A DNA stretch of 64,000 bases, taken from NCBI GenBank assembly GCA_048887065.1, contig JBHLKC010000001.1:1264-65263 (forward strand), written 5' to 3'. The translations under genes and the position numbers were made by a program. Below, in pieces: positions 4,894 to 61,741 of this stretch; within the stretch, counting starts at the first letter, position 1; every line of letters begins with the position of its first letter. The notes beneath the pieces are model-generated. The model made no database searches, had not been told where the DNA came from, and was given only the letters and a program-made list of their open reading frames with translations. This DNA comes from Candidatus Hodarchaeota archaeon (lineage in GTDB: Archaea > Asgardarchaeota > Heimdallarchaeia > Hodarchaeales > Hodarchaeaceae).

Positions 4894-4971
4894 AAGGCTT
4901 TTTTGGTACTCAACTTTTTAATAAGGTCGTTATAGTCAGAAGAATTTCATAAAGAGAAACCTATCTATTTT

Positions 4972-5898: not shown

Positions 5899-6089
5899 AA
5901 ATAAAACCCATTTATAATTGTAAATCTAACTCATCTTTGAATGTATGCCACTTAAGAATTTTGCCTACGTGTTGAAGTATAGTTCCAGTACAAAAGACGA
6001 TCAAAAGCTTTAACACTCACTATCGGACGGAATTTTCTGTTTAATAAGAAGAGAATTAATACTATTATAACCGCTTTGGAGATTTATAG

Positions 6090-7214: not shown

Positions 7215-7220
7215 AGAAGA

Positions 7221-7622: not shown

Positions 7623-7807
7623 TCAATATTCTCCTAGTTACACTTGTTTCAATCGCTTAGAAATTTCACTGAACTTTTCATATTTTACTTTGTAGGAAGT
7701 CTATATGAATTGAAATGATATCTCTATCAAATTGCCTGAGCTGAAGCTTTATAATGTTAGGCTTTTAACTAACTTTTCTTAGTTTAAATCTATTGTTATT
7801 AATTTCG

Positions 7808-16983: not shown

Positions 16984-19378
16984 TTGTACCTGGCAAGAGA
17001 TTGTTTTGGATTAAAGTTTCAATAACAGGTCTCAGATGTTCTTTTGAGACATTAGTTTGACTGCTGATCTCATCCCAAGAGAGTTGGTTCTTAATTTGTT
17101 GATTTGGATCCTTAATAAATGTAATTACCTTGTTAAAAGCTCTTTTGGGTGTTAAAACTGATCTTTCATCTCGTGAAATCCAAAGATTATTACGATGAAT
17201 TATCTCCCGAATCAATTTTTCATTTTCACGGTTTTGGATAATTTCAAGAAGGTCTAGGAGTTCTATTAATTCAAATTCTTGTCGATGTTCAACCATCCCT
17301 TTTAATTCTTGAATTATTCCAGTTTCCGTCACAAATTCTCCAAGTGAATTTGTTATCCCATTTATTGATAAAATTTCTTTGATTACTAGAGAAAGTATAT
17401 CAGCTTCTAATTCTAATTTAAACCCAAGCACCGAGAAATTAATTCTAGCTAGGAGTTTAATTTCATTTGCTATTTTCGAAATAAGCTCTTCAGTGAAAAA
17501 GAATGTCTCGTTTACATCAGTCCGTCCTTTAAACTCTTGTGTTAAATACCCAAGAATAACTCCCTTAACACTCTTATCAAATTTTAGCTCGTTCATGAGA
17601 TCAGAGACACGGAGATAGCTCGTTTCACGAACTTTTTGTTGTAAAAGAGGGTGTAAACTTTCTAGAGAGATTAGCTGTCCACTTTTTGCTTGGAAGGTTT
17701 TAATCTCCAATATCTTTTGTAAGCTTCTGAGAAATGTTGGAAAATCCAAATTAATTGGATTTAAAAGGTGACTTACTCGTTCTTCGTCAATTCTGATCGT
17801 ATTTTGTTCGAGTTTATAGAATTCAGTGATCTCCAAAAATACTTGGATATCTTCGAGCCATCTCCCCTGAAAATGTCTCGAAATTATTTCTTTTAATGTT
17901 TCATATTCGATCTTTGGGTTCCCAATTTCCTTTAGAAATAATTCAAGTGAAATAATATGATATTGCTCTATCTGTTGTCTGATTCGATTATTGATAAAGT
18001 TGGAAGTTAAATATTCGTTGTTAGAGTTATACCAACCATCTTCTGAAGGAACCAGAACAGGGACTATCGAATTCTTTACCAAATCAGGAGATTGATGAAT
18101 ATCCTCACAAATGTTTTTGATTTTAATAAATCCATTTTCTTTTATTTCAGTAGAGTACTTAAAGAACACCTCATTCGTAAGAAATAGATCCGAATTAACC
18201 TGATAAATTTCAGGAATTTGAGATATTGTTTTAATGAGTGTTTCTGGAAGAATATCTTTGAAAGGTTCGTTTTCTTGAAGAGCTGGTAAATAAATAGACT
18301 TTGAATTGTCTAATTCGGTTGAAAGTAGATTTTTAAGCCCTGTATTGGTGAGGGATATATTTTCTTCTAGAGAATATAGTTCTAATCCCAATATTTTGTG
18401 TATAAGGATATCTGTAACGATTTCAGTAGTCTGGAGCTCTTCTGCAAGTTCCGTTATGTTTAGCTCGTTCTTATTTGATAATCTCATTTGCAGGTCTTTA
18501 ATAGCAAAATCCATTTGAGTTTTCAATGTATTCATTACTGAATCAAAATTTTGCTTAGTAGTATCAGATGCATGTTGTAATAATGCTATATAACCAATTC
18601 TTCCACTTGACATGACAACTGATATCATGTCAGATTCATGCTTATTCAAGAAAGCTGCTGCAGTCTCCCTGACATAATCGTTTGGATCTGTAAGGTTTTC
18701 TAAGAAAGGTACGATAAGTTCACGTCCTCCCATATGATCTAACGTAGCCATTGCTTGATTACGGGTCCAATCATCATAACTTGGATCTTTCATAATATCA
18801 ATTAGTGTCCCAAGAACTTGAGGAGTTTTCAGCTTACCGAGGGCGTAAATTACAGTACGTCTAAGTCCCCCCTTTTCTGATCCTAACATTTGTAATAATA
18901 TAGATTCAACACCCTGTATTTGATGAGTTAAGACATTATCAATTGCAGTTTTCCGAACAACCTCTGCAGGATCTTGTAAAGCTTTAATTGTTTGTTCTTT
19001 GAGAGAATGGTGATTCTGAGAGCTAAGCCATTCAAGAGATAGAGAACGGATACCAGGACTAGAGTCTAATAACGCGCCAATAATTATTGGTTCCAGCTTC
19101 TTAGTGTCTGGGATAACTTCCAATAGAGTCAATAGGATTGTTTCTCGAATTTTATCATCAGAATCTTTTACCATATTTAGAAATGATTTAAGAATCATCC
19201 GAAAACGAAAATCTGCGGGATTTGACTTTAAATATTTGCTTAGATTATTAATAGCAGTCCATTTCATGTCAGGATCAGGTGATTTGAGATTTTTCAGGTC
19301 AATTAACACAGATTCCTCGGACATGAAATTATTACTCCTCAATCTTATGATCCTTACTTCAAGAGAGGAAAACGACAT
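16958..19378 (-). CDS. HEAT/PBS-lyase-type repeat protein with about 530-aa C-terminal domain of unknown function
   Basis: 806 aa. N-terminal ~270 aa are repeated ~30-aa HEAT-like units (IRETILLTLLEV, DPAEVVRKTAIDNV, DPNDYVRETAAAFL ...). An alternative start lies at 19324 (MSEES). Confidence 0.7.
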   Translation of the reverse strand: MSFSSLEVRIIRLRSNNFMSEESVLIDLKNLKSPDPDMKWTAINNLSKYLKSNPADFRFRMILKSFLNMVKDSDDKIRETILLTLLEVIPDTKKLEPIIIGALLDSSPGIRSLSLEWLSSQNHHSLKEQTIKALQDPAEVVRKTAIDNVLTHQIQGVESILLQMLGSEKGGLRRTVIYALGKLKTPQVLGTLIDIMKDPSYDDWTRNQAMATLDHMGGRELIVPFLENLTDPNDYVRETAAAFLNKHESDMISVVMSSGRIGYIALLQHASDTTKQNFDSVMNTLKTQMDFAIKDLQMRLSNKNELNITELAEELQTTEIVTDILIHKILGLELYSLEENISLTNTGLKNLLSTELDNSKSIYLPALQENEPFKDILPETLIKTISQIPEIYQVNSDLFLTNEVFFKYSTEIKENGFIKIKNICEDIHQSPDLVKNSIVPVLVPSEDGWYNSNNEYLTSNFINNRIRQQIEQYHIISLELFLKEIGNPKIEYETLKEIISRHFQGRWLEDIQVFLEITEFYKLEQNTIRIDEERVSHLLNPINLDFPTFLRSLQKILEIKTFQAKSGQLISLESLHPLLQQKVRETSYLRVSDLMNELKFDKSVKGVILGYLTQEFKGRTDVNETFFFTEELISKIANEIKLLARINFSVLGFKLELEADILSLVIKEILSINGITNSLGEFVTETGIIQELKGMVEHRQEFELIELLDLLEIIQNRENEKLIREIIHRNNLWISRDERSVLTPKRAFNKVITFIKDPNQQIKNQLSWDEISSQTNVSKEHLRPVIETLIQNNLLPGTIDKKGYHP

Positions 19379-23177: not shown

Positions 23178-23981
23178 TTATTGCGGGATTACTTCTCTGA
23201 TTTGTTTAACAGTTTCGGAAATTCTCACAACGAGAGATTCAAGTCGTGCTGTTGGGTTACCATCCACACAAAGTAATAATCCTTCACTAATTTTATAGGC
23301 CACTAAATTAGTAGCTTCGGATGAGACCACCAAATATCTTAAATTACGCATATAAGTGCTGACATTTAAGATTCGAATAGCCCCAGCCATTTGCAGATGA
23401 TCCATATTGTACTCAATAAGGATGTCTCCTGTAAAAGAAATTATCATAGCTCCCCTTACAACTCCTTCTTCACTTTTTACGAGTTTTCTTAAGTAAAATT
23501 TAGCAGCATTTTTTGAAGAAGTAAGCATTTCTCTTGTCTCACCACTGAAGATTTCATCTACCTCTTCAGTGAAATTGGAAAACATATCTGTGTCTACAAT
23601 ATCAATCTTCTTGATATCATCGCTATATTTGGATAAAAATAAACTCGCAATTGTTGTTAGTTTGAATTGCATATCCATAGTACTGACAAGGGGAGATGCT
23701 AAGATTGCAAATACCAGTTCATCTCTTTCAATGAATGAAAAGCGGTTATCGGTCATATCCACCACTCGAAGGTCGCTTAAAGATGATTTCGCAAACGAAA
23801 ACATTGCAGTTAAGAAAGCAACCACAAGATGGGCATCAGGTGTTTTTCCTTCATTGGTCTCATAAGATCGCGTGAATAAGGTCTCACCTGATTCTTTTCG
23901 GAAAATAAAAAAAGCCTTTATTTGTTTAAATAATTCTAATGTCAACATTCTTCCCTCATAAGAATTCCTTCGCCTTAACAT
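23178..23981 (-). CDS. tandem roadblock/LC7/longin-like domain protein (MglB/Lamtor-like GTPase partner)
   Basis: 267 aa in two ~120-aa halves, each with a beta-beta-alpha-beta-beta-alpha pattern. The second half (VRGAMIISFTGDILIEYN ... EGLLLCVDGNPTARLESLVVRISE) matches the classic roadblock signature. Overlaps the GTPase gene by 26 nt. Confidence 0.6.
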   Translation of the reverse strand: MLRRRNSYEGRMLTLELFKQIKAFFIFRKESGETLFTRSYETNEGKTPDAHLVVAFLTAMFSFAKSSLSDLRVVDMTDNRFSFIERDELVFAILASPLVSTMDMQFKLTTIASLFLSKYSDDIKKIDIVDTDMFSNFTEEVDEIFSGETREMLTSSKNAAKFYLRKLVKSEEGVVRGAMIISFTGDILIEYNMDHLQMAGAIRILNVSTYMRNLRYLVVSSEATNLVAYKISEGLLLCVDGNPTARLESLVVRISETVKQIREVIPQ

Positions 23982-24540
23982 TCAGGATGTTGATAGTTAA
24001 TGTCCGAAAGGCTTCGTTAACATTTTCTCCAGTCTTTGCAGAAGTTTCGATATAATCGATAGCATGCATATGTTGTTGGACTTCTTTGGCTCTTTTTTTC
24101 GTAACTTCCCTTTTCAAATCGGATTTATTACCAATGAGGAATGATAGAGACTTTGGAGATACTCGCAATACTTGACTTTGCCATCGTTCCTGGATTGCAT
24201 TAAGTGTCTCTTTGCGTGTTAAATCAAAAACATAGAAAGCTCCTGATGCTCCCTTTAAGTATAAATGGGAATACGAGACATGTCTCGCTTGACCAGCAAT
24301 ATCCCAAACCTGAAGTGAAACATTTCGGAGGATGTCGTTATTATCAATGAATTTAACCTTCTTCGTCAAAAAATCCACTCCCAAACTCATACTATATTCC
24401 TCCTTAAATTTATTTTCAATGAATCTTAATATTAAAGACGTTTTTCCAACCATGCCATCTCCAAGAAGAAGAACTTTTAATACATGCTTATATTCTGTTT
24501 GTGATTTAACCAAACCCATATCTCCACGGATTGAACTCAT
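23956..24540 (-). CDS. Ras-superfamily small GTPase (Rab-like)
   Basis: G1 GDGMVGKTS, switch I SLGVDF (Rab TIGVDF-like), G3 WDIAGQ, G4 GNKSD, G5 ETSAK. 194 aa. Confidence 0.85.
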   Translation of the reverse strand: MSSIRGDMGLVKSQTEYKHVLKVLLLGDGMVGKTSLILRFIENKFKEEYSMSLGVDFLTKKVKFIDNNDILRNVSLQVWDIAGQARHVSYSHLYLKGASGAFYVFDLTRKETLNAIQERWQSQVLRVSPKSLSFLIGNKSDLKREVTKKRAKEVQQHMHAIDYIETSAKTGENVNEAFRTLTINILNVKAKEFL

Positions 24541-41678: not shown

Positions 41679-42362
41679 TTATGCCATTTCTACCTTTTTT
41701 ATCCGAAAACGGCAATAACTATCGCCATTTCCAATGCATTTTTCCTTAAAAACCGACTGCCCTATTAATTCATGCATCATTGTCTCATCAACCTTGCAAA
41801 TCATAGGATTCACTTTTGCTACTCCGTGCATTAGACAGTTATAGTTTGTTAATGCGTATGATGTCTCATCTTCATCTAGCTTAGGAAAAGTACCATGTTC
41901 TTCGAAAATTCCAACCAGCTTATTCAATTTAAATTCTAAAGAATCGACTTTGTCTGATAATTGCCTTTTCATTTGATCACTTATATTTAAGGCTAATTTT
42001 TTACCAATATTTGAGAAAAGCATCTGTAGTTTATCTTCTCCATACATAACCTTTATTTCATCAAGTACGGTTATACAAAATTCCATGTAAGTTTTAGGAA
42101 AAAGCTCTATCCCCTTTTCGGAAATTGAATAAACCATAGCAGGTCGTCCAGTCTTCCCTTTCTTCTCTTTCTTAAAAACAAAGCCTTCTTTTTCTAAGGT
42201 TACAAGGTAGTTCCATACAACATTAGTACTAAGATCTAATGAACTAGCAATGGCTTTCACAGTAAAATATGTGTTCTCATCGGATGTTGAACCTTGGTGC
42301 ATCAAAAAGCGTAGGATCCTTTCACGGGCTGGAAAAGATAAGTTTCTAAAATTATTTACCAA
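41679..42362 (-). CDS. winged-helix regulator with C-terminal V4R-like Cys domain (MsvR-like redox-sensing regulator)
   Basis: N-terminal wHTH (RERILRFLMHQG...). C-terminal NYNCLMHGV..NPMICKVDE...EKCIGNGDSYCRFRI resembles the V4R consensus C...G...CxF. Paralog of 47484-48173. Confidence 0.5.
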   Translation of the reverse strand: MVNNFRNLSFPARERILRFLMHQGSTSDENTYFTVKAIASSLDLSTNVVWNYLVTLEKEGFVFKKEKKGKTGRPAMVYSISEKGIELFPKTYMEFCITVLDEIKVMYGEDKLQMLFSNIGKKLALNISDQMKRQLSDKVDSLEFKLNKLVGIFEEHGTFPKLDEDETSYALTNYNCLMHGVAKVNPMICKVDETMMHELIGQSVFKEKCIGNGDSYCRFRIKKVEMA

Positions 42363-44465: not shown

Positions 44466-45161
44466 CTATAATTTAAGACTCAGTATATACTCAGTAGGAT
44501 TTTCAAACTGTTTTTGAATTTTAAAGCCAGGAATAGAGAGTAAATAAAATAGACAAGATCCAAGGTAATAAAATGAAACGAGGGTTACTAATGACGCTAT
44601 ATAGAGAAACAAAAAAGAAAATTCAACCGAAGGATAAGTTGAATGCCCCATCCGAATTAGAATTATGCAGATCCCATAACCATCGTTTACAGATCCCAAC
44701 ATGGCTGGTAATATGGGAAATAAGTTTATTAAATTAATTAAAAGGCCAAAAATTAGAAATTTTTTACCTGCAACAGAGGCTGGACTTTTTTTGTTACGAA
44801 GTACTATTATTCCCGCAATAGTGATTGTAAATACCATAAGAGAACCTGCTAGCTTCATTATTATTGATCCCCAGCAAACAGGTAATTCTTCAATGGTGAT
44901 CATGTTCGAACAGCCTCCTTCATATAAATGACAGATTTTAAACTGAGAATCAACTGTTGGTAGAATAATCGATGATGCAAGTAGGTGTCCTAATTCATGA
45001 AGACAATTGAACGGCAAATAAACGATATTATAAAGGCCTTGAACAATAGGGGATTGTTGAAGTAGATATAGAAAAAAGATTGAAAATAAAATTGAAAAGT
45101 AAAATTTAGCGTTTTGATTAATAACGGAAGGTGTGTCCTCGTTCATAGGTTTTTTTACCAT
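44466..45161 (-). CDS. membrane protein with intramembrane HExxH motif (putative membrane metalloprotease-like)
   Basis: 231 aa with about 5 TM helices. Motif CLHELGHLLAS. Family not resolved. Confidence 0.3.
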   Translation of the reverse strand: MVKKPMNEDTPSVINQNAKFYFSILFSIFFLYLLQQSPIVQGLYNIVYLPFNCLHELGHLLASSIILPTVDSQFKICHLYEGGCSNMITIEELPVCWGSIIMKLAGSLMVFTITIAGIIVLRNKKSPASVAGKKFLIFGLLINLINLFPILPAMLGSVNDGYGICIILIRMGHSTYPSVEFSFLFLYIASLVTLVSFYYLGSCLFYLLSIPGFKIQKQFENPTEYILSLKL

Positions 45162-45349: not shown

Positions 45350-46063
45350 TCACTGAATTGGAATCTTTTCTTTACCAGTTACCATTCCTCTAAGTCGTTG
45401 ACGATTTTCAGGGATTATAGCAAAATAAAAATGCACCATCGTAGAGACAAGGAAATATACAAACATAAGGAAGTGAAGGAAACGAATGTTAAGATTCAAT
45501 GCTTGCACCGGTGCAACAAGTAATGCCAATACAGCAAGTATCCCTGTAGATCCAGGTGCTAATTGCTCTGCAAGAGCAATTCCTGTTACACCCATTAGAA
45601 ATATTACAACTAGGTTCATTAAAGCTAGTAGTTTTTGAGCAGGATGATATTTCATAATATATTTCTTTTCTTCGAGGATATAGAAGTCATAATGGGGATA
45701 CTTTGAATCAGGTAAAATTCTAAACGCACATAATGCAATGATAATCAAGTCTAGAATCTCTCTTGGTGTAGGAATAATCTCAAGGAGTTTTCTGTCTTTT
45801 ATTAAGATCGCAATATAAAAAATTAAATCCCAACCACCTACAAAAATTCCAAGAATATAATGGAGAGTACGAGTGAACCCATATGTAGTTCCAAAGAAAT
45901 AGACTTTAATAGCGATTTCAAAACCTGTTAATATAAATAGAACCATAGATCCAACGTGAACCCAATGATGAAGTCGGTGGCTCTTTGTATATCTTTCTAC
46001 AGAAAGAAACTCGAAAGTTTTTGATTCGTCTGCTTTTGAGAGTACTTTTTTTGTTTTAAGCAT
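45350..46063 (-). CDS. membrane di-heme b-type cytochrome (Ni/Fe-hydrogenase/formate-dehydrogenase cytochrome b subunit-like)
   Basis: 237 aa with 4-5 TM helices. Conserved R..HRLHHWVHV on TM1 and further His on later helices, as in the HyaC/FdnI family. Confidence 0.5.
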   Translation of the reverse strand: MLKTKKVLSKADESKTFEFLSVERYTKSHRLHHWVHVGSMVLFILTGFEIAIKVYFFGTTYGFTRTLHYILGIFVGGWDLIFYIAILIKDRKLLEIIPTPREILDLIIIALCAFRILPDSKYPHYDFYILEEKKYIMKYHPAQKLLALMNLVVIFLMGVTGIALAEQLAPGSTGILAVLALLVAPVQALNLNIRFLHFLMFVYFLVSTMVHFYFAIIPENRQRLRGMVTGKEKIPIQ

Positions 46064-46099: not shown

Positions 46100-47011
46100 T
46101 TATTCTTCAGAAGAAAATGTTTCATTCCAACGCTCTCTAAATGTTGGGCTCTTCCAACGATTACTAGTGCTTAATTTTGTTGGTATATCGCTAGAAATTA
46201 GTCGGTAATCGTGTTTTATTGGATTTATGATTACTCTACGAATGAAGTGCAGAACAATAAACCCAAAACCACTTAACATTGTTAAGCTAAGCACTTGGAG
46301 CTTAAGTTGATCATAATTGATTACTGTTGGGACAGGAATATTTCCAGGGGCAATCCCAGCTTGAGGAGTGGAAAATGATGTAAGTATATAGTAAAAAGTA
46401 TGTGAACCAAAATGATCACTTTTTGAAGCAAATTGAATCATTGTTATGCTTCCATTCTGATACACAATATCATAACCATTAGAATCAACACTTGTTGTAT
46501 CTAATAATCTCACAACTTCAATCTCTACAAGATCGCCTGTGAAAATACCTTCAGCTAAAAGATCATTATTAGTGTCTTCACTAGGCATCCGCGTTCCAAT
46601 AAAGAATACATCCTTCGCTTCTACAGTTTTAGCATTCTCATCAATATAAATAGCCCAACCGTCATGCTGGTTCATCATACATGCAGAGGTATCTGCGTCA
46701 AACTCGATTGATATCCATTCATTGCTTGCTGAGCTAACAAGTAAAGCATACAGATGAGTTTCGTTATTAGCAAATTTAACGTAACCCTTAGGACCGTATT
46801 CTGATATATTCTGATAAGATTCAATAGATGACCAAAATGGATCAATTTGACCATCATTCAGGTTCAATGTGGTGTTTGTTTTACTGGATACGAATCCTGG
46901 AGTTTCATCTGCAACCTTGCTCGGATAACCTAATGTTGATCCTACAAAGAAGCCTGCTCCAATAAAAAAGGCTATCATCAACAAAGATAGGATTATTTTT
47001 CTCATTCCCAT
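46100..47011 (-). CDS. extracytoplasmic DOMON/EB_dh-like (putative heme-binding) domain protein with N- and C-terminal TM anchors
   Basis: 303 aa with signal-anchor and C-terminal TM. Central domain (DPFWSSIESY...THLYALLVSSASNEWISIEFDAD) resembles ethylbenzene-dehydrogenase-gamma/DOMON-type domains. Has N-glycosylation sequons. Lies 36 nt upstream of the cyt b gene on the same strand. Confidence 0.35.
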   Translation of the reverse strand: MGMRKIILSLLMIAFFIGAGFFVGSTLGYPSKVADETPGFVSSKTNTTLNLNDGQIDPFWSSIESYQNISEYGPKGYVKFANNETHLYALLVSSASNEWISIEFDADTSACMMNQHDGWAIYIDENAKTVEAKDVFFIGTRMPSEDTNNDLLAEGIFTGDLVEIEVVRLLDTTSVDSNGYDIVYQNGSITMIQFASKSDHFGSHTFYYILTSFSTPQAGIAPGNIPVPTVINYDQLKLQVLSLTMLSGFGFIVLHFIRRVIINPIKHDYRLISSDIPTKLSTSNRWKSPTFRERWNETFSSEE

Positions 47012-47483
47012 TTTAATTTCACTTCTACTATGTCCAACACAATATTCAGACTTAATACAGTAATTAATAGATTGTATTCTCCCTTGGGGATACCGTCTGA
47101 ATCGGAAAAATAATTTTGACCAATAGAGAACAATTACTCACAGTTTTTACGTGTTAGTTGCAGATATTCTAGCTGTTCCTTGGATTGTAATGTGGAGAAT
47201 AATAATTATTTTTCCGATTTTAAATTCTATAAAATAATATTTTAATTTTTCCATTTAAAAATTTGCAAACTGTATTTATTTTGTACTTAACTAGTGTAAG
47301 AAGTAAAAGAAAAACAGAAAAGAGGTTAAAATTTAATTATAGATTTTTTACAAAGACAGTAGGCATTGATTATATCGAAAATTTTGCAGCTCTTCCTCTA
47401 TAATAAGTGAAAAGAATTTGAAGCCTTTATCAGTGGTAATTTTGGGAAGGATATCTTACATTGAAGTCCTTTTTTAGGGGTTA

Positions 47484-48173
47484 TTAACTAGCTTTCACTT
47501 TTTGAATTCTATAGAGACAACATTCATCGCCGTCTCTAAGACATTTCTCTTTTGTACACTTTTGACCTGCTAATTCCGCTATCATTGTCTCGTCAACTTT
47601 ACAAACCAATGGATCATGTCTTACAACACCATAAACAAGACAGTTATAATTCAAGAGCGAGAATGATGTTTCGTCTTCTATTAATTCTGGAAACTTCCCA
47701 TAATCTTGGAAAACTTCAGCCACTTTTTCTAGCCTTTGTTTAACTGGTAGAGAATCGAAGGATTCTGTTCTATCCATATTAGATTCGATAATATCTTTTA
47801 TTTCTGAGGCGATTCTTTTCCCTACCATTTCGAGCATGGTAACTGTCTCTGCAATACCATGACGACTCTTAATTAAATCGACTAGATAGATAGATAAATC
47901 TCTATAAACCTTAGGAAAAAATTCAAAAGCATTGTCTGTAAGTGTGTAAGTCATAGCAGGCCGACCTGTTGAACCCTTCAGTTCTGTTCGTACCACAAGT
48001 CCATCTTTTTCAAGAACAACCATATATTGTCGGGCTGCATTTGTACTAAGGCCAAGTTCAGTTGCAATCTGTTTTATGGTACAACAATCACCATCTGGTG
48101 ATCGATTAAGCAACAAGTACCGTAAGATCTTTTCACGTGTCGTAATAAATGGTTCTTGTTCTGCTTGGATCAT
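47484..48173 (-). CDS. winged-helix regulator with C-terminal V4R-like Cys domain (MsvR-like), paralog of 41679-42362
   Basis: Shared blocks RPAMTYTLTD, EDETSFSLLNYNCLVYGVVRHDPLVCKVDETMIAELAGQ, EKCLRDGDECCLYRI. Confidence 0.5.
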   Translation of the reverse strand: MIQAEQEPFITTREKILRYLLLNRSPDGDCCTIKQIATELGLSTNAARQYMVVLEKDGLVVRTELKGSTGRPAMTYTLTDNAFEFFPKVYRDLSIYLVDLIKSRHGIAETVTMLEMVGKRIASEIKDIIESNMDRTESFDSLPVKQRLEKVAEVFQDYGKFPELIEDETSFSLLNYNCLVYGVVRHDPLVCKVDETMIAELAGQKCTKEKCLRDGDECCLYRIQKVKAS

Positions 48174-49192
48174 TTTTTTTCTCCTATCTTTATGAAAAGG
48201 GTTTTGTTTGTATAATCATAATGGGAACAGTGATTGATTTCAAAAAAAATGAGAGGCGCTATTGAAATATTGGTTAAACAATGTTTCCGCTCATAATTAT
48301 ATAATTTGATTTTAATGAGAGGAAATATCCAAGGCATGCGAATGAACTCGCGACTTTATTATTATGATTATCCGTGTAAATAAAGAATAAATACATATAT
48401 AATAATTTTCCTAAAAAAAAGCATAAAATCAAAAAAGTTGACAATGAATACATAATTTAACTACTTTCTGAATTTAACTAACTTTTATCTACTGAAAATA
48501 ATAAATATTGAGAAATAAGAAACCTAAACGTTTTTGCTCTTGTTTCTTTAAAACATTTGAAGAGGATTTTACTCGTTGAAATTCAATCCTTTTTGAAGGC
48601 CATATTCGATTTAAATAGTAGAAAATGATTTTCACTAGCGATAAAAGCGAATTATGTCTCAATCATGTCCGATCTTATTGCTAGCAGATTAACCACAAGA
48701 AAGTTATTATCTCTTGATGGAAAAATAATAATTAGAAAAGTAAATTTCAATTACATCCGAATTCATAGAGGCTTAATACTATAACAATTAACTATTGTAA
48801 ATTAGTTTAACTAGATTCGAAAAACGGATTATATATTATCTCTTTTTGTAAAATAAAGTTCGCATCCGTTTTTTAGGCTATTATTATCAAAATGGTTTTT
48901 ATTGGATTTTTTCCAGCTCTATAAGTCTCTTCTGTATTAATGCAGATTTTCTGAAGTTTTTATAATAGATACATTAAAAAAATAAAAAACTATAGTTATA
49001 TTTCATACATTTAATAATACCATAATGTTTTTTTATCTGAAATTATACCTATACTTGAGTATAGTTTCTAATACTATATTTATCGCAAAGTTTGCGAAAT
49101 TCGAAATAACATACGATATGTCGGTTAAAGTACCGATAGTTAACTTCTTACCAAGAAGTAGCGAAGAAAATCTCATATACGGCGGTATATTG

Positions 49193-50512
49193 ATGAATCA
49201 AGAAGAAAAATTAGTCAGCCAGAGTAAGTGGAGTGGCAAGCGAGTTGTGTTACTCTACTGGTTCTCAATCGCTTTCTTGGGAACAGCTGCTGCTGCTGGT
49301 CTAGGTGCTGGTGTTTTAAATCCTAAATATTCCTTCGATGCAGTACAAATGGACCATAGCAGTATAACTGATCCCTGGGGACCACAAGATTGTACTGGTG
49401 CTTATTGTCACAATGACTCGGTTGACACTTGGAATGAAACTGGACATGCTCATGCTGCTGTTCCTTTCACTAATACTACTGGTGATTTTGTGGAAATAGC
49501 AGGTTCGAGGAATGTTACACGTGCCCAATTTGACTCAAGTTGTGGGCATTGTATGGCAACAGGATGGGACAATTCCACTGGAACTGTCACCTACTGGGAT
49601 TTTGGAGTAACTTGTGCAGCCTGTCACGAGCCAGGTGTAATAAATTATACTGCAGCAAGTTGTGGGAACTGCCACACTGGAAGTCACCACCCTCAATATC
49701 CAGATTACCAAAAGAGTGCACATTCTCAATCAATGGATGATTTGCTGGCAAGCGATCACGCGGGTGACCACTGTCTTCATTGCATGTCTGGACAAGGGCT
49801 ATATGCAGAAGAAGAGTTATCGCTTGATGATACCTTCTTAACTTCGATTAACTGTGCTACCTGTCACGATCCCCATGATGCGACAAATTCAACTCAACTA
49901 CGAGAAGCAGATGTGACCGATCTCTGTGGTGAGTGTCATAGTGGAGGTCGCCATGGATCTCTAGATATGCTAACCGATACAGAAACTACAAGTGCTCATG
50001 GATACATTGATTGTACCTCGTGCCATGGTTACCAGCTTGACAGTTACGGTGAAGCAGGTGTGAATCATACTTGGGCTGTGACAACGGATGGATGCTCAAC
50101 ATGTCATTCAAACCCCACCGAACGATGGACTCTGATGGAGGATATCCAAGGCGATATCACTGCACTAATGGACGAATACGAGACTCTATATGAGAATGTC
50201 ACTAAAAAAGTCGATGAAGCCAACGAAACAGCAGGCGTAGATGAAGCCTTGATCAATGATTCTTTCGATTTAATCGCTGAAGCTGAAGCACTTTTCATTG
50301 CAGTTGATGGTGACGGAAGCGAAGGTTTCCACAATCCTGACTTAGCTGAAGCAAAACTCAAATTGGCTCTAACAAAGCTGGATGAGGCTTATGCTAAAGC
50401 TGAAGAGGCTGTAGCTGGTGGTGGTGACGTTCCTGGATTTGAAGTATTCACAGTCTTAGCAGCGATTAGTGTTCTAGCTGTAGGAGTTCTTCTCTACAAG
50501 AAAAGACGCTAA
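49193..50512 (+). CDS. surface-anchored multiheme c-type cytochrome with PGF-CTERM archaeal sorting signal
   Basis: Six canonical CxxCH motifs (CAACH, CGNCH, CATCH, CGECH, CTSCH, CSTCH), one CX4CH (CTGAYCH) and two CxxCM. N-terminal signal/TM. More than 10 N-x-S/T sequons. Ala/Glu-rich linker, then VPGFEVFTVLAAISVLAVGVLLYKKRR (PGF motif + TM + basic tail). The track ORF starts at 49025, but the ATG at 49193 precedes the signal peptide. Confidence 0.8.
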   Translation: MNQEEKLVSQSKWSGKRVVLLYWFSIAFLGTAAAAGLGAGVLNPKYSFDAVQMDHSSITDPWGPQDCTGAYCHNDSVDTWNETGHAHAAVPFTNTTGDFVEIAGSRNVTRAQFDSSCGHCMATGWDNSTGTVTYWDFGVTCAACHEPGVINYTAASCGNCHTGSHHPQYPDYQKSAHSQSMDDLLASDHAGDHCLHCMSGQGLYAEEELSLDDTFLTSINCATCHDPHDATNSTQLREADVTDLCGECHSGGRHGSLDMLTDTETTSAHGYIDCTSCHGYQLDSYGEAGVNHTWAVTTDGCSTCHSNPTERWTLMEDIQGDITALMDEYETLYENVTKKVDEANETAGVDEALINDSFDLIAEAEALFIAVDGDGSEGFHNPDLAEAKLKLALTKLDEAYAKAEEAVAGGGDVPGFEVFTVLAAISVLAVGVLLYKKRR

Positions 50513-50552
50513 AAACTACCAGAGGACGAAAAAGGCATCACCTTAAAATATA

Positions 50553-50597
50553 AAGCAATGTAATGTAATTATATTGCTTTTTAATTCCTTTTTTTTA
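50553..50597 (+). terminator. hairpin plus oligo-T putative transcription terminator downstream of the cytochrome gene
   Basis: Inverted repeat aagcaat / attgctt flanks a 13-nt loop, followed by T-runs (ttttt ... tttttttt). Archaeal termination typically uses oligo-T. Confidence 0.35.
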
Positions 50598-50972
50598 TTA
50601 GTTGGGAGGCAGAGGTATGTAGAATATTACTTTGTATTATGAGGTTTCTTTCATGCAATTTCTCGATAATTCAGAATGTTAAGATCTTTAATTTAGTGTT
50701 AGAACAGAAATAAAAAAATCGATTCTATGAGATTAATTGACATTTTAATAATTGTATTAAACCTGATTTGCTTACAGGTTTTGAATTGATTATGGTGTCA
50801 TTTTTATGGAAGGGACTTTTATTAAAACTTCTTTCTGTATTTCTCCCTACAAACAATAAGAATTTACCTATCTAATCCTGTAACTAGAACGTTTGGGTTT
50901 TCTGAAAAAAAATTACCGTGTGTTTATTACCAAAAATTATACCTAGAATATTGTTAAGGGTTATTACTTAAT

Positions 50973-51404
50973 CTATTTTTGGCATACACACGGTAGAGAA
51001 ACACAATCAGATAGGATTGGCTGAATCCCTGAGAGATTAATTTCGTTCTCAGTAATTGTTCCATTTAATGCTTTGCTCGTTAGTTCCAAGAATCTGTCAG
51101 TTTCGTCTATCCCTAATTTTGTAAGACTGGGGAAGAGCTTAGTTTCAATCTCTCGTAGATCGCAAGCTGTTTCACAGATAGAGTAACACCCGCTTTCAAT
51201 TTTGTTTCGTGTCATTCTGAGTTGTTGTAGAAGATCATTGGGTATTTTATCACCGTTCTTATATATTCTCCCAATTGTAGAGGCCATTACTGCCCATTTC
51301 CAGCCAAATTTAGAAAGCATCTCTTCTAATTCAGCTTTAGATTTGCTTTTCTCCATTCTTTGTCCAAATTCAGATCTAGTTTGCACTCTCATTTTTATCT
51401 CCAT
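50973..51404 (-). CDS. hypothetical Cys-containing protein
   Basis: 143-aa ORF flanked by long non-coding spacers. No recognised motif. Confidence 0.3.
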   Translation of the reverse strand: MEIKMRVQTRSEFGQRMEKSKSKAELEEMLSKFGWKWAVMASTIGRIYKNGDKIPNDLLQQLRMTRNKIESGCYSICETACDLREIETKLFPSLTKLGIDETDRFLELTSKALNGTITENEINLSGIQPILSDCVSLPCVCQK

Positions 51405-51726
51405 TTTCTAAGAGGATCAAAATGTATTGAATATACGAACTTTTTAGTTTATAAATTTTTTTTATTTTTTAAATATTTATTAAATAGAGGAATATTATTA
51501 ATTTTTTAACTAAAAAAGTTAAAAATCAATTACACAAGTTTCACACCGCCTTGTCCACGTGCAATAATTAGCCTTGGTAATTGTATTTTATATTTCAGAG
51601 CTTTAACTCTTCAATTTTCTACAGGAAGAAACGCTAAAAACTAGTTGAGTATCTTAGTGAAGCAAAATGTCCAAAATGCTTTACATATTCCTTTTTTTCT
51701 TTTTTACTTGAATATTGATATGAATA

Positions 51727-52416
51727 TTATTCTGTTATCAATTCATCGATAAACAAGAGTATCAATACTAAGACAATGATTGCATGAAGGAAAAGAAGAA
51801 ATGCATTGATTACAACTGAAGTTGGATCATAATAGAATGTTAAATTTCTTGTAGCCTCTGCAGCAATAATAATGGATGGGAGAATTAATGGGAAAAACAG
51901 AATCGGAATGGCTAAAGTTTTAGATTTAGCATAAATTGTCAAGAAAGACACAATACAACCAGCAACAACTAGATCGATTGTCCCAATTGCCAAAACAAAA
52001 CAAAAGAGTAACAAGTCTCCTTGAACATTAATTTCTAAGAAGATTATAGCCATAGTAAATGCGAATACCTCGACAACTGCCAAAATAACTCCTAAATACA
52101 AGAGTTTTGCCAAAAAAATTGCTTGAGGTTTAATCGACAACGAAAGGAGTGAATATATTGAATTTTTCCTCATTTCCCGTGAAAAGACCGAATTGAGACC
52201 TAGCATGACAGTAAAGGCAATTATAAACCACATTGATGCTGTAGAAATTGTATACTTTGCTTCAAGAGATATATTCTCAATGAGATTAAAGAGAGTAGAA
52301 AATATAAGTACAGAGGCTAAAGAAAAAAGGCCCATTGAAAAAAGAGTCTCTTTTGTCCTAAATTCTAGAATTAAATCCTTTTTTGCTATATTAAAGGTGT
52401 CAAGAATAATTGACAT
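51727..52416 (-). CDS. ABC-2-type permease, putative heme exporter protein B (CcmB-like)
   Basis: 229 aa with 6 TM helices, immediately downstream of the ABC ATPase in an operon with ccmC. The CcmB assignment is contextual. Confidence 0.5.
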   Translation of the reverse strand: MSIILDTFNIAKKDLILEFRTKETLFSMGLFSLASVLIFSTLFNLIENISLEAKYTISTASMWFIIAFTVMLGLNSVFSREMRKNSIYSLLSLSIKPQAIFLAKLLYLGVILAVVEVFAFTMAIIFLEINVQGDLLLFCFVLAIGTIDLVVAGCIVSFLTIYAKSKTLAIPILFFPLILPSIIIAAEATRNLTFYYDPTSVVINAFLLFLHAIIVLVLILLFIDELITE

Positions 52417-52439
52417 TATTGATCCACAATTAAATAATA

Positions 52440-53201
52440 TTAATTCTTGTTTTTCAAGAAAAAATCATATTCAGAAGGAATGAGTACTTTCGTGATCCCA
52501 CCATTTTCGAGATAAAACACTCTACTGCACAAGCGAGCTATTGTACGAAAATTATGTGAACAAATGATAACTGTTCGATCTGCCTGTCGTTTCGTAATGA
52601 GCTGATTCAAGAATTTTTTATTCTCTACATCTAAACCACTAAAAGGTTCATCAAGGAGAAGCAATTTAGGCAAAGTAGGTAATAAAACCCTTAAAATTTC
52701 CAGTTTTTTAGCCATGCCAGTAGAGAGTTCATGTGCGGGTCTGTCAATATATAATTTGAGATTATACTGTTTTACTGCTTCATTAATAATCTCATTAGTA
52801 TTTTTTGTACGTTTATTCATTTTGAGATAATATTCAAGATTTTCACGTCCAGTAAGATCCTCATAAAAGAATGAATGGCTTAATAACACTCCAATATCCT
52901 TTTTCAAGAGATGATATTTTTCCTTAGCTTCTGTACCAAAAATTTTGATGCTACCTGAAGAAGGGGTAACCAGAAGGGATATAATTTTTAGAAGTGTGCT
53001 CTTTCCAGCTCCATTATGTCCAATAAATCCTATTGTTTCTCCTTCTTCTATTTTCAGATGAATTTTCTTTAAAGCAGTCGTAAAACCATAAATTTTGCTA
53101 ACATTTGTCAATTCAACAGCTGGCAGATTGTTCTGCATACCAACGCTCATCTCAAAGCACCATTTAACCTCAATGCTCCCTGTATATGGAAAAAAGGTCA
53201 T
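52440..53201 (-). CDS. ABC transporter ATP-binding protein, putative CcmA
   Basis: Walker A GHNGAGKST, signature LSTGMAKK, Walker B LLLDEPFSGLD. Confidence 0.8.
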   Translation of the reverse strand: MTFFPYTGSIEVKWCFEMSVGMQNNLPAVELTNVSKIYGFTTALKKIHLKIEEGETIGFIGHNGAGKSTLLKIISLLVTPSSGSIKIFGTEAKEKYHLLKKDIGVLLSHSFFYEDLTGRENLEYYLKMNKRTKNTNEIINEAVKQYNLKLYIDRPAHELSTGMAKKLEILRVLLPTLPKLLLLDEPFSGLDVENKKFLNQLITKRQADRTVIICSHNFRTIARLCSRVFYLENGGITKVLIPSEYDFFLKNKN

Positions 53202-53232
53202 ATGAAAATCTTAAAATCCTCAGACTCCAATA

Positions 53233-53391
53233 TTACTCCTTTAAACTGTCTAATTCACGTTCTAATTTCTTCAACTTATTAACAGTATAATAGAGATAGA
53301 GAAAAATCAGTATCCATGCAGCAATAGAAACAAAAAACATCAAATTTAATTCAGAACCAAGAATTTCATCAAATATGTCAGTTACAGCCAT
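53233..53391 (-). CDS. small single-TM protein, CcmD-like (not in ORF track; 52 aa)
   Basis: My own translation: MAVTDIFDEILGSELNLMFFVSIAAWILIFLYLYYTVNKLKKLERELDSLKE. One TM helix plus a charged tail. Lies between ccmC and the ABC ATPase, where ccmD sits in ccm operons. Confidence 0.4.
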   Translation of the reverse strand: MAVTDIFDEILGSELNLMFFVSIAAWILIFLYLYYTVNKLKKLERELDSLKE

Positions 53392-53425
53392 TATGTTAAC
53401 CTCCGATTAAATTGTATTTGAAGAT

Positions 53426-54154
53426 TCAATCTTCCTCCATTCTTTGTTTTCTTAATTTTTTTAAAGCAAAATCCATTTTATTGAGTTTATACGCTTGATA
53501 GATCAGAATTAAGGCCAATATTCCAATAAATAAAAAGTTTAACATTAAGAACATGCCTGCCCCAGTGCTATAACTTGTTTGTTGAGGATTAGGATGTAAG
53601 ACTCCAACTATAACATATGATAGGGGTACAGAGACGAATGCTACAATTCCAAATACTGCTGAAATCGTTGCCTTTCTTTCGTGATTTTCGACTTCTATCA
53701 TATCTCGAAAGATTAGAAGGCCAACATATATGAGCCACATAACTAAGGTTATTGTCTCACGATCATTCCAATCCCAAAAAGTACCCCATTCAACTTTTGC
53801 CCAAATCATTCCAACAATGATCGTTATTGCTCCAAGTACAACACCGACCTGAGCACTTGAAACGAGAATAAGATCTAATCTCAAATCTTTTTTCCATAAT
53901 AAGAAAAGAATTCCGCAAATAAGAGCAATTCCAAAGCAGAAGTATGTTGAAAAAGCGAATGGAACCATATAGAATATTGGTTTACCACTTACTATAAAAC
54001 CCTGAAAAGGTTTTAATGAGATATAGACCATATAATAATTAAAAGTGATAAAACCCAATCCAATAATGAAAAATATCTGAGTCTTGTATGGGATTTTTCG
54101 CCAAATTTTATCCATGATAAAATCCGTATAAGGCTTAAGAATTTCCGGACTCAA
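53426..54154 (-). CDS. ccmC: heme exporter protein C (CcmC) with WWD domain
   Basis: Tryptophan-rich WWD signature VEWGTFWDWNDRE, conserved His in flanking loops, 6 TM helices. 242 aa. Confidence 0.75.
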   Translation of the reverse strand: MSPEILKPYTDFIMDKIWRKIPYKTQIFFIIGLGFITFNYYMVYISLKPFQGFIVSGKPIFYMVPFAFSTYFCFGIALICGILFLLWKKDLRLDLILVSSAQVGVVLGAITIIVGMIWAKVEWGTFWDWNDRETITLVMWLIYVGLLIFRDMIEVENHERKATISAVFGIVAFVSVPLSYVIVGVLHPNPQQTSYSTGAGMFLMLNFLFIGILALILIYQAYKLNKMDFALKKLRKQRMEED

Positions 54155-59521: not shown

Positions 59522-60136
59522 ATGGGTATATTGGCTAGAATTTTTGCGAGGAGTCGAAAATCGCGATTAACAATTGGTATTTTAGGAGCACCAAATGCAG
59601 GAAAAACAACCTTGGCTAACCGAATTTCAACAGAGTGTGGAAACGGACAACCATTAGGGGTTGTTAGTCCTATCCCGCATGAAACACGAGAATGTGTTGC
59701 CATGGAGCATTGCAATATAACTGATCATAGTGGTTCCCTTGATCTCACAATCGTTGATACCCCTGGCATTGCTACCTCTGTTGATTACAGAGAATTTCAA
59801 AGCCATGGATTAACAAAGCAAGAGAGTATTGAGCGAGCAAAACAAGCTACAAGAGGTGTCATTAAAGCAATTCAATCTTTAGATAGTTTGGATGCTGCTA
59901 TTGTAGTGGTTGACTCAGCACGGGCTCCTTTCGATCAGGTAAACTGGACTGTGCTTGGGAATCTAGAAGCTAGGAAAATTCCCTTGATTGTTGCTGCAAA
60001 TAAAACCGATTTACCCGAGGCGGATCCTGAGTTAGTGAAAGAAGCGTTTCAAACTGACATAATACCTCTTTCTGCAAAAAAAGGTACAGGGATGAACGAA
60101 CTTTATGGGAGTATTTTCACAGTAGCTAATATGTAG
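59522..60136 (+). CDS. P-loop GTPase (archaeal conserved, TRAFAC class)
   Basis: G1 GAPNAGKTT, G3 DTPG, G4 NKTD, G5 SAK. 204 aa. Confidence 0.75.
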   Translation: MGILARIFARSRKSRLTIGILGAPNAGKTTLANRISTECGNGQPLGVVSPIPHETRECVAMEHCNITDHSGSLDLTIVDTPGIATSVDYREFQSHGLTKQESIERAKQATRGVIKAIQSLDSLDAAIVVVDSARAPFDQVNWTVLGNLEARKIPLIVAANKTDLPEADPELVKEAFQTDIIPLSAKKGTGMNELYGSIFTVANM

Positions 60137-60874: not shown

Positions 60875-61741
60875 TTATAGCCTTAGCTTTATTTCTCTTG
60901 AAACTTCGTTGAAATCACAGACACCGAGTTCATGGAGGTGTCTAAGACTCCTTCGTGCTATAATGGGGGTTATTCCGAGCTCTGAGGACATGATTGCCAA
61001 ATTAAGCGAGCGTTTTTTCGAGTCTTCAAAATAGTCGATTATGTACAAAAGAATTCGTCCTAATTCGTTTTCTCCAAGAAAAGCTCTTATATGTCGGTCT
61101 CTAGCTAATTTTCCTTTCGCATCCCGAGTGAAATCCTCACTTATCTGTCCTGCTCGCTCTTCTAACCGCTTGATTTCCAGTCGTAGTTGATTTTGAATTT
61201 CTAAATGATCTGCTTGAATTTCATCAATTTCATTTTCAGTTTGTTCTATAACTTCCTGCAATTTGGCTATTTGAGCGACGTATGTTTGTCTTTCAAACTT
61301 TGCTTCTTCTATCATTTTTTTCTGCGTTTCAATAATATTATTTTGGTGTTCAAGTGTCAATTTTATGGGTTCAAGCTCAGCTTTTAATGCCTGAGCTTCT
61401 TCTTTCGCTTGTGTGAGTTGATTCTCAAGATTAGTGATTAATTCAACTTTTTCTTGAATTCTGTATTGATAATCATTATGGACTTTTTCTAATTCTTTTT
61501 CAAGAGAAGATATTTTTTCGATTTGAACACCTAGTACAGTTTGTTGTTCTTCAGTTCCTACTTCATTTTCACTTACTTTCTCAGAATGATCCTTTAATAC
61601 TTCTTTTAATTGATGTAATTGTTGTCTTAGATTTTCGATTTCTGTAGATTGGTTATCACCATCATTTGGCTCCTTAGAGTCGAACGTTTTAGAATTTTCC
61701 GATTGAGACTCTTGTTTCTGATCGAATTCCTCATTATCCAT
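60875..61741 (-). CDS. coiled-coil protein with C-terminal winged-helix-like domain
   Basis: About 200 aa of heptad-patterned Q/E/K/L-rich sequence, then RILLYIIDYFEDSKKRSLNLAIMSSELGITPIIARRSLRHLHELGV. Confidence 0.45.
   Translation of the reverse strand: MDNEEFDQKQESQSENSKTFDSKEPNDGDNQSTEIENLRQQLHQLKEVLKDHSEKVSENEVGTEEQQTVLGVQIEKISSLEKELEKVHNDYQYRIQEKVELITNLENQLTQAKEEAQALKAELEPIKLTLEHQNNIIETQKKMIEEAKFERQTYVAQIAKLQEVIEQTENEIDEIQADHLEIQNQLRLEIKRLEERAGQISEDFTRDAKGKLARDRHIRAFLGENELGRILLYIIDYFEDSKKRSLNLAIMSSELGITPIIARRSLRHLHELGVCDFNEVSREIKLRL

Follow-up and report, generated by a model that had tools for sequence, protein, structure and literature searches.

Two bacterial cytochromes are the closest described relatives of the protein dealt with here. 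OcwA (TherJR_2595) of Thermincola potens JR (6i5b) is a nonaheme cell-surface terminal reductase that also reduces nitrite and hydroxylamine in vitro (PMC6703420). The heme chain of OcwA ends on either side in a penta-coordinate, high-spin, solvent-exposed heme (hemes 2 and 5) that lies under a His-His motif (PMC6703420). OcwA and OmhA have been described as the only known proteins that retain both 'catalytic' hemes of their superfamily (PMC6703420; bioRxiv 10.1101/2022.02.24.481543). As to Asgard archaea, Helarchaeota and a Heimdallarchaeia metagenome-assembled genome (MAG) are stated to lack multiheme cytochromes (PMC9723726, PMC9979476), and Heimdallarchaeia are stated to lack a cytochrome c carrier (bioRxiv 10.1101/2025.02.26.640444). 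Our literature search found no description of OcwA-like cytochromes, of their gene cluster or of their CxxCM motif in Asgard archaea. Here we analyze a 64-kb window, the whole stretch of 64,000 nucleotides from a Candidatus Hodarchaeota assembly (GCA_048887065.1), which contains a gene for an OcwA-like c-type cytochrome with nine heme sites. The sequence of this cytochrome is already public and machine-named.

The comparison was based on two samples of homologues: a family census of 64 strong homologues, and an alignment of 33 homologues that was used for conservation, for a profile and for a structure model. Related loci are labelled L001-L011 (from species-representative genomes of GTDB) and L012, L017 and L019 (additional loci). 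The 33-homologue profile matched OcwA 6i5b over its full length in a search of the PDB, with an expected value (E) of 2.1e-37, and the single sequence matched it with E 2.9e-13. OcwA and OmhA (6qvm) score clearly above any NrfA or octaheme nitrite reductase (ONR). The AlphaFold (AF2) model has a predicted local distance difference test score (pLDDT) of 77, and most of its core and C-terminal helices exceed 85; searched with Foldseek, it also found OcwA 6i5b as best match (E 1e-10), followed by NrfA, ONR and MccA. All nine C(x)nC-X motifs align one-to-one with those of OcwA, although two of them end in Met and not in His. The predicted overall fold agrees with the OcwA/OmhA type, including the C-terminal three-helix bundle, which aligns with the helices of OcwA, NrfA and MccA and with GVHNYD. 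We give a probability of about 0.6 to the reading that this archaeal cytochrome belongs to the OcwA/OmhA branch (clade 3 of the NrfA-c554-octaheme superfamily), that it joins a c554-like four-heme module to an NrfA-like five-heme module and the three-helix bundle, and that it has the role in electron transfer proposed below. The first-pass annotation had recognized a multiheme c-type cytochrome here, as is borne out by the nine heme motifs in OcwA order and by OcwA and OmhA as closest solved structures.

The mechanically listed open reading frame (ORF) extends from 49025 to 50512 (+). Since all 33 aligned homologues begin MN(D)QEE at position 49193, the ATG there was taken as the true start; the 56 codons between 49025 and 49193 are AT-rich filler. 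The protein contains six CxxCH motifs, one CX4CH and two CxxCM, in the order CTGAYCH (residues 67-73), CGHCM (117-121), CAACH (141), CGNCH (157), CLHCM (194-198), CATCH (221), CGECH (245), CTSCH (274) and CSTCH (301), and every one of its 18 cysteines lies within these nine motifs. Composition shuffles of the cytochrome give 0.04 expected CxxCH motifs versus the 6 found. The ectodomain carries 11 N-x-S/T sequons versus 2.56 +/- 1.44 in shuffles, a count that not one of the 5000 shuffles attained. Hydropathy shows two hydrophobic segments, at residues 18-42 and 413-437. The motif counts, the N-terminal transmembrane (TM) segment, the abundant sequons and the ending of PGF, helix and KKRR had all been listed in the first-pass annotation, which was correct in every countable detail. 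The features of the locus are collected in Table 1.

Table 1. Features of the cytochrome locus and of the surrounding window (positions in the 64-kb window)
Feature	Position	Strand	Evidence or remark
OcwA-like nonaheme c-type cytochrome gene	49193..50512	+	439 aa; stop TAA at 50510-50512 included
N-terminal hydrophobic helix (aa 18-42)	49244..49318	+	preceded by conserved cytoplasmic segment QSKWSGKR; hydropathy; model helix aa 3-42
Heme 1, CTGAYCH (CX4CH)	49391..49411	+	aligns to OcwA heme 1 CKTCH
Heme 2, CGHCM	49541..49555	+	aligns to OcwA heme 2 STCAGCH (open-site heme); Met replaces proximal His
Heme 3 (CAACH) and heme 4 (CGNCH)	49613..49675	+	align to OcwA GITCEQCH and AENCGQCH
His165-His166	49685..49690	+	corresponds to OcwA HH281/282 above heme 2; pairwise alignment GSHHPQYPDY / NSHHLQYPEW
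Heme 5, CLHCM	49772..49786	+	aligns to OcwA heme 5 CLKCH and NrfA catalytic heme 1 (CxxCK); Met replaces His/Lys
Hemes 6-9, CATCH, CGECH, CTSCH, CSTCH	49853..50107	+	NrfA Pfam match begins here
C-terminal three-helix bundle with GFHNP (aa 378-382)	50114..50416	+	model helices aa 308-344, 351-372, 382-408, pLDDT above 90
Tripartite sorting-type tail (PGF, hydrophobic helix, KKRR)	50429..50509	+	tail-only hidden Markov model scan
Junction without ~740-aa protein, CcmF and CcmE	50513..51726	.	1.2 kb; only a 143-aa Cys-rich ORF, 50973-51404 (-)
CcmB (heme exporter permease)	51727..52416	-	Pfam CcmB 3e-14; 85% identical to cytochrome-adjacent CcmB of L001
CcmA-like ABC ATPase	52440..53201	-	ABC_tran 3e-30; TIGR01189 100.6 bits, below 131.6 cutoff
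CcmC (heme-handling WWD protein)	53426..54154	-	Pfam Cytochrom_C_asm 3e-20; TIGR01191 2.5e-20, below cutoff
SufR-like helix-turn-helix (HTH) + MetOD1 (Cys-rich) regulator	47484..48173	-	divergent from cytochrome gene
303-aa membrane-anchored DOMON-fold protein, putative heme b carrier	46100..47011	-	AF2 model, pLDDT 70
Membrane b-type cytochrome (Ni_hydr_CYTB / prokaryotic cytochrome b561 family)	45350..46063	-	PF01292 1.3e-11; TIGR02125 1e-12, below cutoff
231-aa polytopic membrane protein with HELGH	44466..45161	-	no Pfam or NCBIfam match
Ras-family small GTPase	23956-24540	-	Pfam Ras 1.5e-42
Second small GTPase, MMR_HSR1/EF-Tu type	59522-60136	+	
288-aa coiled-coil protein	60875-61741	-	weak crescentin-rod similarity

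Both CxxCM motifs align to exactly the open-site hemes of OcwA, hemes 2 and 5. Judged from this alignment they are not oddities, and their positions are those of the two OcwA active-site hemes. The arrangement of OcwA is not retained in full at these sites: the proximal residue is Met at both, and the His-His pair is kept over heme 2 and absent over heme 5. In the family census the heme-5 site is CxxCM in 52 homologues (81%), CxxCV in 4, CxxCK in 2 and CxxCH in 1, and it is lost in 5. The heme-2 site is more varied, with CxxCM in 20, a single-Cys CM in 12, a His-type motif in 23 and R, F, L or K in 7. At the heme-1 site 47 of 64 have CxxCH and 10 have CX4CH; heme 3 is CxxCH in 62/64 and heme 4 is CxnCH, while hemes 6, 7 and 8 (CxxCH) and heme 9 (CxnCH) are kept in all 64. 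More distant representatives of 50%-identity clusters mostly have CxxCH at heme 5 (83/136), and the heme-5 Met is concentrated in the best-scoring clusters, which make up the Asgard clade. The near-invariant cysteines argue that the CxxCM sites are used, and the existence of paralogues without heme 5 argues that this heme is a side branch and not part of the core wire. Met at hemes 2 and 5 would change potential and reactivity relative to OcwA. A CxxCM motif in place of the NrfA CxxCK, shared by 81% of the clade, would represent a new variant of heme c ligation and of lyase specificity. Giant multiheme proteins, for example P0238 (1622 aa) and P0243 (1278 aa), contain a module related to this cytochrome family, and some of them also show CxxCM at the heme-5 position.

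Many family members carry the NCBI name 'ammonia-forming cytochrome c nitrite reductase', since Pfam matches the C-terminal third of NrfA at threshold. On the cytochrome itself Pfam recognizes a c554-like N-terminal part, a doubled-CXXCH segment and this C-terminal third; the match to PF02335 (Cytochrom_C552, NrfA) scores 24.2 bits versus a cutoff of 24.1 and covers only residues 273-409, or profile positions 246-386 of 438. NrfA is a pentaheme protein with CxxCK (rarely CxxCH) at heme 1, whereas nine sites are found here and the equivalent motif is CLHCM. There is no NrfH or NrfBCD partner in the window, and no other CxxCH-containing ORF. An NrfA identity was rejected because the match is partial and at threshold and OcwA and OmhA score better. 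Given nine hemes, no CxxCK, shorter spacers, no NrfH or NrfB and NrfA scores below those of OcwA and OmhA, the product name is probably a misannotation, one that affects the proteins of this clade systematically in the database.

The NCBI name would nevertheless be roughly right in function if the protein were a catalytic small-molecule reductase on the outside of the membrane, acting on nitrite or hydroxylamine to give ammonium, or on a sulfur oxyanion or peroxide, with hemes 2 and/or 5 as active sites. We regard this as the main rival to extracellular electron transfer, and as doubtful. Membership of the NrfA/ONR/MccA/HAO superfamily is consistent with it, as are the activity of OcwA on nitrite and hydroxylamine in vitro, the placing of the heme-5 motif at the NrfA CxxCK position with CxxCK itself in two family members, the Cytochrom_C552 match on the C-terminal half, and a variation of proximal residues that is typical of catalytic and not of wire hemes. 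However, the limited extent and score of that Pfam match and the better scores of OcwA and OmhA tell against it. At a heme spacing of ~25-30 residues there is not much protein from which an NrfA-type substrate pocket could be built, the His-His pair that OcwA has over heme 5 is missing, and the window offers none of the NrfA partners. Furthermore, heme 5 is lost in five homologues and in the L019 paralogue, and Val, Phe or Leu is the proximal residue in others.

The protein appears to be held in the membrane at both ends. In the N-terminal region R17, L20, Y22, G30, G36 and G38 are invariant or nearly so among the 33 homologues. Conservation of the helix, and of the cytoplasmic segment in front of it, is unusually high, so that the helix is probably a retained signal-anchor rather than a cleaved signal peptide. 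The C-terminal tail, VPGFEVFTVLAAISVLAVGVLLYKKRR, shows a tripartite architecture of motif, TM helix and basic end (VPGF-EVFTVLAAISVLAVGVLLY-KKRR). Scanned alone, it scores 24.0 bits on the Heimdall-CTERM model (NF045529; cutoff 24) and 23.4 bits on the Loki-CTERM model (NF033507; cutoff 19.9); within the full-length protein it falls below both cutoffs (18.1 and 17.6 bits), and the match is thus at threshold. Tails of relatives reach 32.5 bits on these models. PG[FY] followed by a helix and a basic end is present in 42 of the 64 family tails, an A-x-G variant occurs among the rest, and other surface proteins in related loci bear the same type of tail. From these model matches we take the tail as a genuine sorting-type signal of an Asgard-specific class. 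The first-pass annotation had assigned it to the archaeosortase-A PGF-CTERM signals, misled by the literal PGF: the PGF_CTERM model TIGR04126 (cutoff 24.5 bits) gives no match to the tail even at E up to 10, and among seven PGF-tailed relatives it registers in only four tails, with 7.7-11.5 bits. That assignment was therefore rejected, and lipid anchoring by ArtA is an extrapolation, since the tail matches Heimdall-/Loki-CTERM and not TIGR04126. The literature searched contains no mention of Heimdall-/Loki-CTERM signals or of an enzyme that processes them, and we know of no such enzyme. The other part of the proposed topology, a sequon-rich extracytoplasmic domain between the N-terminal TM helix and the C-terminal sorting tail, agrees with hydropathy, the 11 sequons and the tail models. 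The TM helices, the sequon enrichment and the sorting-type tail suggest that the cytochrome is exposed at the surface and may reduce extracellular acceptors.

An Asgard origin of the DNA, which had been put forward from the sequence alone, is supported by strong homologues confined to Asgard archaea, by synteny with Hodarchaeota, by the Ras GTPase and by the archaeal coenzyme A genes. Where the 64 strong homologues are named, they belong to Hodarchaeales, Heimdall-, Thor-, Odin-, Hermod- or Promethearchaeota, and their E-values drop from 1e-32 to 1e-14, the point at which bacterial cytochromes start. This clade comprises only about 25 full-length clusters at 50% identity; 1.84 billion representatives yielded 159 clusters at E up to 1e-30. 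An identical protein is encoded on a 4.3-kb contig with 99.6% DNA identity to positions 46893-51206, in a MAG labelled Candidatus Hermodarchaeota (GCA_048886065.1), and the Candidatus Hodarchaeota MAG GCA_048887385.1 is collinear across nine upstream genes with ~80% DNA identity. The window also holds an archaeal phosphopantothenate synthetase/pantoate kinase set and ERCC4. It is of Asgard origin and of Hodarchaeales type; a contaminating non-Asgard contig is untenable in view of homologues, synteny and gene content that are all Asgard. The two small GTPases and the coiled-coil protein of Table 1 are typical eukaryote-like features of Asgard genomes. In addition, the gene for an 806-aa HEAT-repeat protein (16958-19378, -) overlaps the start of the ERCC4 (XPF-type) nuclease gene (16222-16983, -). 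tRNA and Rfam scans of the window gave no matches.

Genes for cytochrome c maturation adjoin the cytochrome in the form of CcmA, CcmB and CcmC (51727-54154). Six related loci show CcmA in synteny with CcmB and CcmC. The three Ccm proteins of the window are 76-85% identical to their L001 counterparts, while the two cytochromes share only 62% identity. In 14 related loci (L001-L012, L017 and L019) the cytochrome gene is followed by that of a ~740-aa protein. CcmF comes next in 12 of the 14 and then CcmE in 9; in the other cases the contig stops too early or gives no match. This CcmE carries the archaeal CPSKY motif (Cys-type, CxxxY). The CcmC, CcmA and CcmB genes usually follow the CcmF/CcmE segment, in either orientation. 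The gene order of the window is that of L009 and L017 minus the ~740-aa/CcmF/CcmE segment. As for the ~740-aa protein, which lies between cytochrome and CcmF in L001-L012, L016, L017 and L019 (e.g. L008 11701-13923), it consists of an N-terminal TM segment, a GlcNAc-2-epimerase/GH76-like (alpha/alpha)6 barrel, a C-terminal TM segment and a very basic tail. The 143-aa Cys-rich ORF at the junction has a weak, sub-threshold DUF2096_N match and, among the related loci, a homologue only in the same-species contig L014.

In L015, a 78%-identical relative, CcmB lies 177 bp after the cytochrome gene, so that the loss of the segment predates the divergence of the window from L015 (dS 0.51). The ratio of non-synonymous to synonymous substitution (dN/dS) for the cytochrome is 0.27 against L015, which shares the deletion, and 0.24 against L012; pairs with the undeleted L012 range from 0.21 to 0.24. 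The cytochrome has been under purifying selection since the segment was lost. It is therefore very improbable that the gene is a relic whose holocytochrome is no longer made in this lineage, as the absence from the window of three genes that stand beside the cytochrome in related loci might suggest. Its ORF is intact with all nine motifs kept, dN/dS against L015 is close to that of the L012 pairs, and CcmB, CcmA and CcmC are intact. Extra CcmF and CcmE copies are also found at other loci in related assemblies. On the basis of dN/dS and motif retention we argue against the relic hypothesis, and we infer that CcmE and CcmF are encoded elsewhere in the source genome. One related assembly (GCA_004196315.1; L017 and L019) has two modules and three CcmF genes, and its locus L019 (3225-12196) comprises a 555-aa paralogue with seven CxxCH and no heme 5, a 738-aa protein, CcmF, CcmE and a second CcmF. 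When a CcmF was sought from GCA_048886065.1, the MAG with the identical cytochrome, the three most similar CcmF proteins looked up all came from other assemblies. The CcmF of L008 (13932-16181) scores 169 bits on the NrfE model TIGR03145 versus 160 on the generic CcmF/NrfE model, both far below cutoff. NrfE is the lyase subunit for the CxxCK heme of NrfA, and the slightly higher score could be a hint of a special motif specificity.

The neighbours upstream of the cytochrome include the genes of a membrane b-type cytochrome and a 303-aa protein. The model of the latter matches EbdC (2ivf_C, 1e-6), NxrC (7b04) and the cytochrome domain of cellobiose dehydrogenase in Foldseek, and its invariant residues include C111-M112, H86, H200 and H204. 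It has only 23 homologues, of which all the named ones are from Hodarchaeota/Hodarchaeales or Promethearchaeota, and one carries the Pfam DOMON domain (PF03351). The DOMON gene is syntenic in L001, L002, L008, L012 and L017, cytochrome b adjoins it in L001, L002, L008 and L012, and the pair is syntenic with the nonaheme cytochrome in five other loci. The 231-aa HELGH protein has counterparts next to the cytochrome b gene in L012 (79%) and L002 (36%). From its HExxH motif it could be a membrane metalloprotease; its membership of the cytochrome system is uncertain, and a role in processing the CTERM tail would be pure speculation. A SufR-like regulator stands beside the cytochrome also in L001, L002, L008, L012, L014, L015 and L017. 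A second SufR-like HTH + MetOD1 paralogue, 43% identical, occurs at 41679-42362 (-), near ZIP, MscS and EamA transporter genes. Between the regulator and cytochrome genes there is ~1 kb of AT-rich DNA without a credible ORF (48174-49192), which is unusually long for an archaeal intergenic region; its last ~290 bp, directly 5' of the cytochrome, are conserved with L015.

We propose that the apoprotein crosses the cytoplasmic membrane and stays attached to its outer face, where it would receive covalent hemes from an archaeal-type System I (CcmABC, Cys-type CcmE, CcmF, no CcmH), with CcmE and CcmF supplied from elsewhere in the genome. The seven bis-His hemes would act as an electron wire. Electrons might be drawn from the quinol pool by cytochrome b, pass via the DOMON heme protein to the nonaheme cytochrome, and leave at the end hemes 2 and/or 5 to an external acceptor; candidate acceptors are solids of Fe(III) or humic type, shuttles, partner cells and small soluble oxidants. 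Extracellular electron transfer, already suggested in the first-pass annotation, appears to be the best reading. It is strengthened by the homology to the cell-surface terminal reductases OcwA and OmhA; OcwA also reduces nitrite and hydroxylamine in vitro (PMC6703420).

A second rival, weaker than the soluble-oxidant reductase, would keep the electrons in the membrane. Here the cytochrome would be an internal respiratory carrier whose high-potential, Met-ligated end hemes link quinol oxidation by cytochrome b and the DOMON protein to a membrane terminal oxidase or other membrane enzyme, thus filling the place of the 'missing cytochrome c' in respiratory models of Heimdallarchaeia. Met axial ligation generally raises the heme potential. 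In L004, L005, L008 and L011 the cluster lies beside a heme o synthase and two membrane proteins, a possible link to oxygen respiration, and L017 has rubrerythrin, hemerythrin, AhpC and rubredoxin nearby. The L008 segment (4248-7680) encodes a heme o synthase with 209.8 bits on TIGR01473 (cutoff 210.3) and conserved 538-aa and 265-aa membrane proteins without a family match, as do L004, L005 and L011. No electron carrier to Cox has been reported in Heimdallarchaeia (bioRxiv 10.1101/2025.02.26.640444). A Hodarchaeales oxidase is reported to use quinol and not cytochrome c (bioRxiv 10.1101/2025.11.07.685452). The window has no oxidase genes, the closest characterised relatives are outward-facing terminal reductases, and a wire of nine hemes is excessive for a simple shuttle. 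We thus consider a carrier role quite unlikely.

Several observations weigh against extracellular electron transfer by an OcwA-like cytochrome. The confidence of the AF2 model is moderate (pLDDT 77), and the model is that of a protein chain without hemes. Only 11 of the 64 members have H165, which belongs to the first OcwA His-His motif (over heme 2), and the second His-His motif of OcwA, over heme 5, is not conserved. PMC4158909, the only paper mentioning CXXCM in the literature searched, cites E. coli System I as failing to mature CXXCM, CXXCK and CXXCR variants, and because of this failure, as cited there, heme attachment at the two CxxCM sites is only predicted. The first-pass annotation had held that its proposal would fall if the genome lacked both an archaeosortase and CcmE/CcmF: although CcmA, CcmB and CcmC are present, no archaeosortase or any other sorting enzyme is encoded in the window, the one part of this genome that was searched, and tblastn searches of it down to E = 10 found nothing credible for CcmE, CcmF or the ~740-aa protein, only a weak 32-residue CcmF match (E 8e-4) inside the CcmC gene. 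Nor does the window contain another multiheme cytochrome or a known conduit component, and only about half of the loci share the pair of cytochrome b and DOMON genes in synteny. Finally, since OcwA-type enzymes reduce nitrite and hydroxylamine in vitro, a soluble substrate is conceivable here as well. We suggest more tentatively, as a possibility that is on balance improbable, that the whole cluster could form a dedicated Hodarchaeales-type module for extracellular electron transfer, in which cytochrome b and the DOMON protein feed the nonaheme cytochrome, a CcmF/CcmE lyase of its own and the ~740-aa partner serve it, and the terminal hemes are bound via CxxCM with a Met ligand.

The fold and the general role were already known from OcwA and OmhA; the novelty lies in the lineage of the host, in the signals for anchoring, in the pair of CxxCM motifs and in the conserved module of 740-aa protein, CcmF and CcmE. 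Metabolic models of the archaeal ancestor of eukaryotes are built on the transfer of hydrogen or formate and on aerobic chains that are partial, because multiheme cytochromes and a cytochrome c carrier have been reported as lacking. A conserved, selected and Asgard-specific clade of OcwA-like proteins that has maturation genes of its own adds direct extracellular electron transfer as a third option, and the cytochrome offers a Hodarchaeales-type lineage a plausible route for electrons out of the cell that published metabolic models omit. A dedicated module of the kind suggested above would enable the closest archaeal relatives of eukaryotes to deliver electrons straight to minerals or a bacterial partner, an alternative to the hydrogen/formate syntrophy assumed in models of eukaryogenesis. 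Likewise, covalent attachment at CxxCM with a Met ligand would be an undescribed motif, requiring a lyase specificity that is absent in E. coli System I. Cultures of Hodarchaeales now exist, and the extracellular electron-transfer option is therefore directly testable.

Compared with known systems, the tail resembles that of PGF-CTERM/ArtA substrates such as the Haloferax volcanii S-layer glycoprotein in its literal P-G-F motif, hydrophobic helix and basic end on a glycosylated surface protein, but it fails TIGR04126 and fits Asgard-specific models, and there is no ArtA in the window. The 303-aa protein has the predicted fold of the EbdC (ethylbenzene dehydrogenase), NxrC and cellobiose dehydrogenase cytochrome domains, with invariant Met and His as possible heme ligands, and as in heme b DOMON systems it adjoins a membrane cytochrome b of di-heme type. 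Unlike those systems, this putative heme binder has N- and C-terminal TM anchors of its own and a conserved cytoplasmic tail, and no molybdoenzyme or flavoenzyme is attached. NrfA and ONR share with the cytochrome a homologous C-terminal five-heme module with its helices, and in NrfA too a residue other than His follows the CxxC of the catalytic heme (Lys in NrfA, Met here). They have five or eight hemes and not nine; the Asgard protein differs further in much shorter inter-heme spacers and in the absence of CxxCK and of NrfH/NrfB. OmhA of Carboxydothermus ferrireducens is an S-layer-associated undecaheme protein, which differs from the Asgard cytochrome in being bacterial and in its two-heme N-terminal extension and CxxCH motifs. 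The likeness to OcwA comprises nine heme sites in the same order (c554-like four, NrfA-like five), the beta-sheet insert, the C-terminal three-helix bundle with its G-x-H-N motif, the conserved distal His positions, the HH over heme 2 and a predicted outward-facing location. The Asgard cytochrome departs from it in having CxxCM and not CxxCH at hemes 2 and 5, CX4CH at heme 1 and no HH over heme 5. OcwA-type cytochromes of Gram-positive bacteria are matured by System II, whereas an archaeal Ccm system would serve the Asgard protein. Its host is an archaeon without a cell wall of the Gram-positive type, and the protein differs from OcwA in its N- and C-terminal membrane segments, its Heimdall-/Loki-CTERM tail and its many N-glycosylation sequons.

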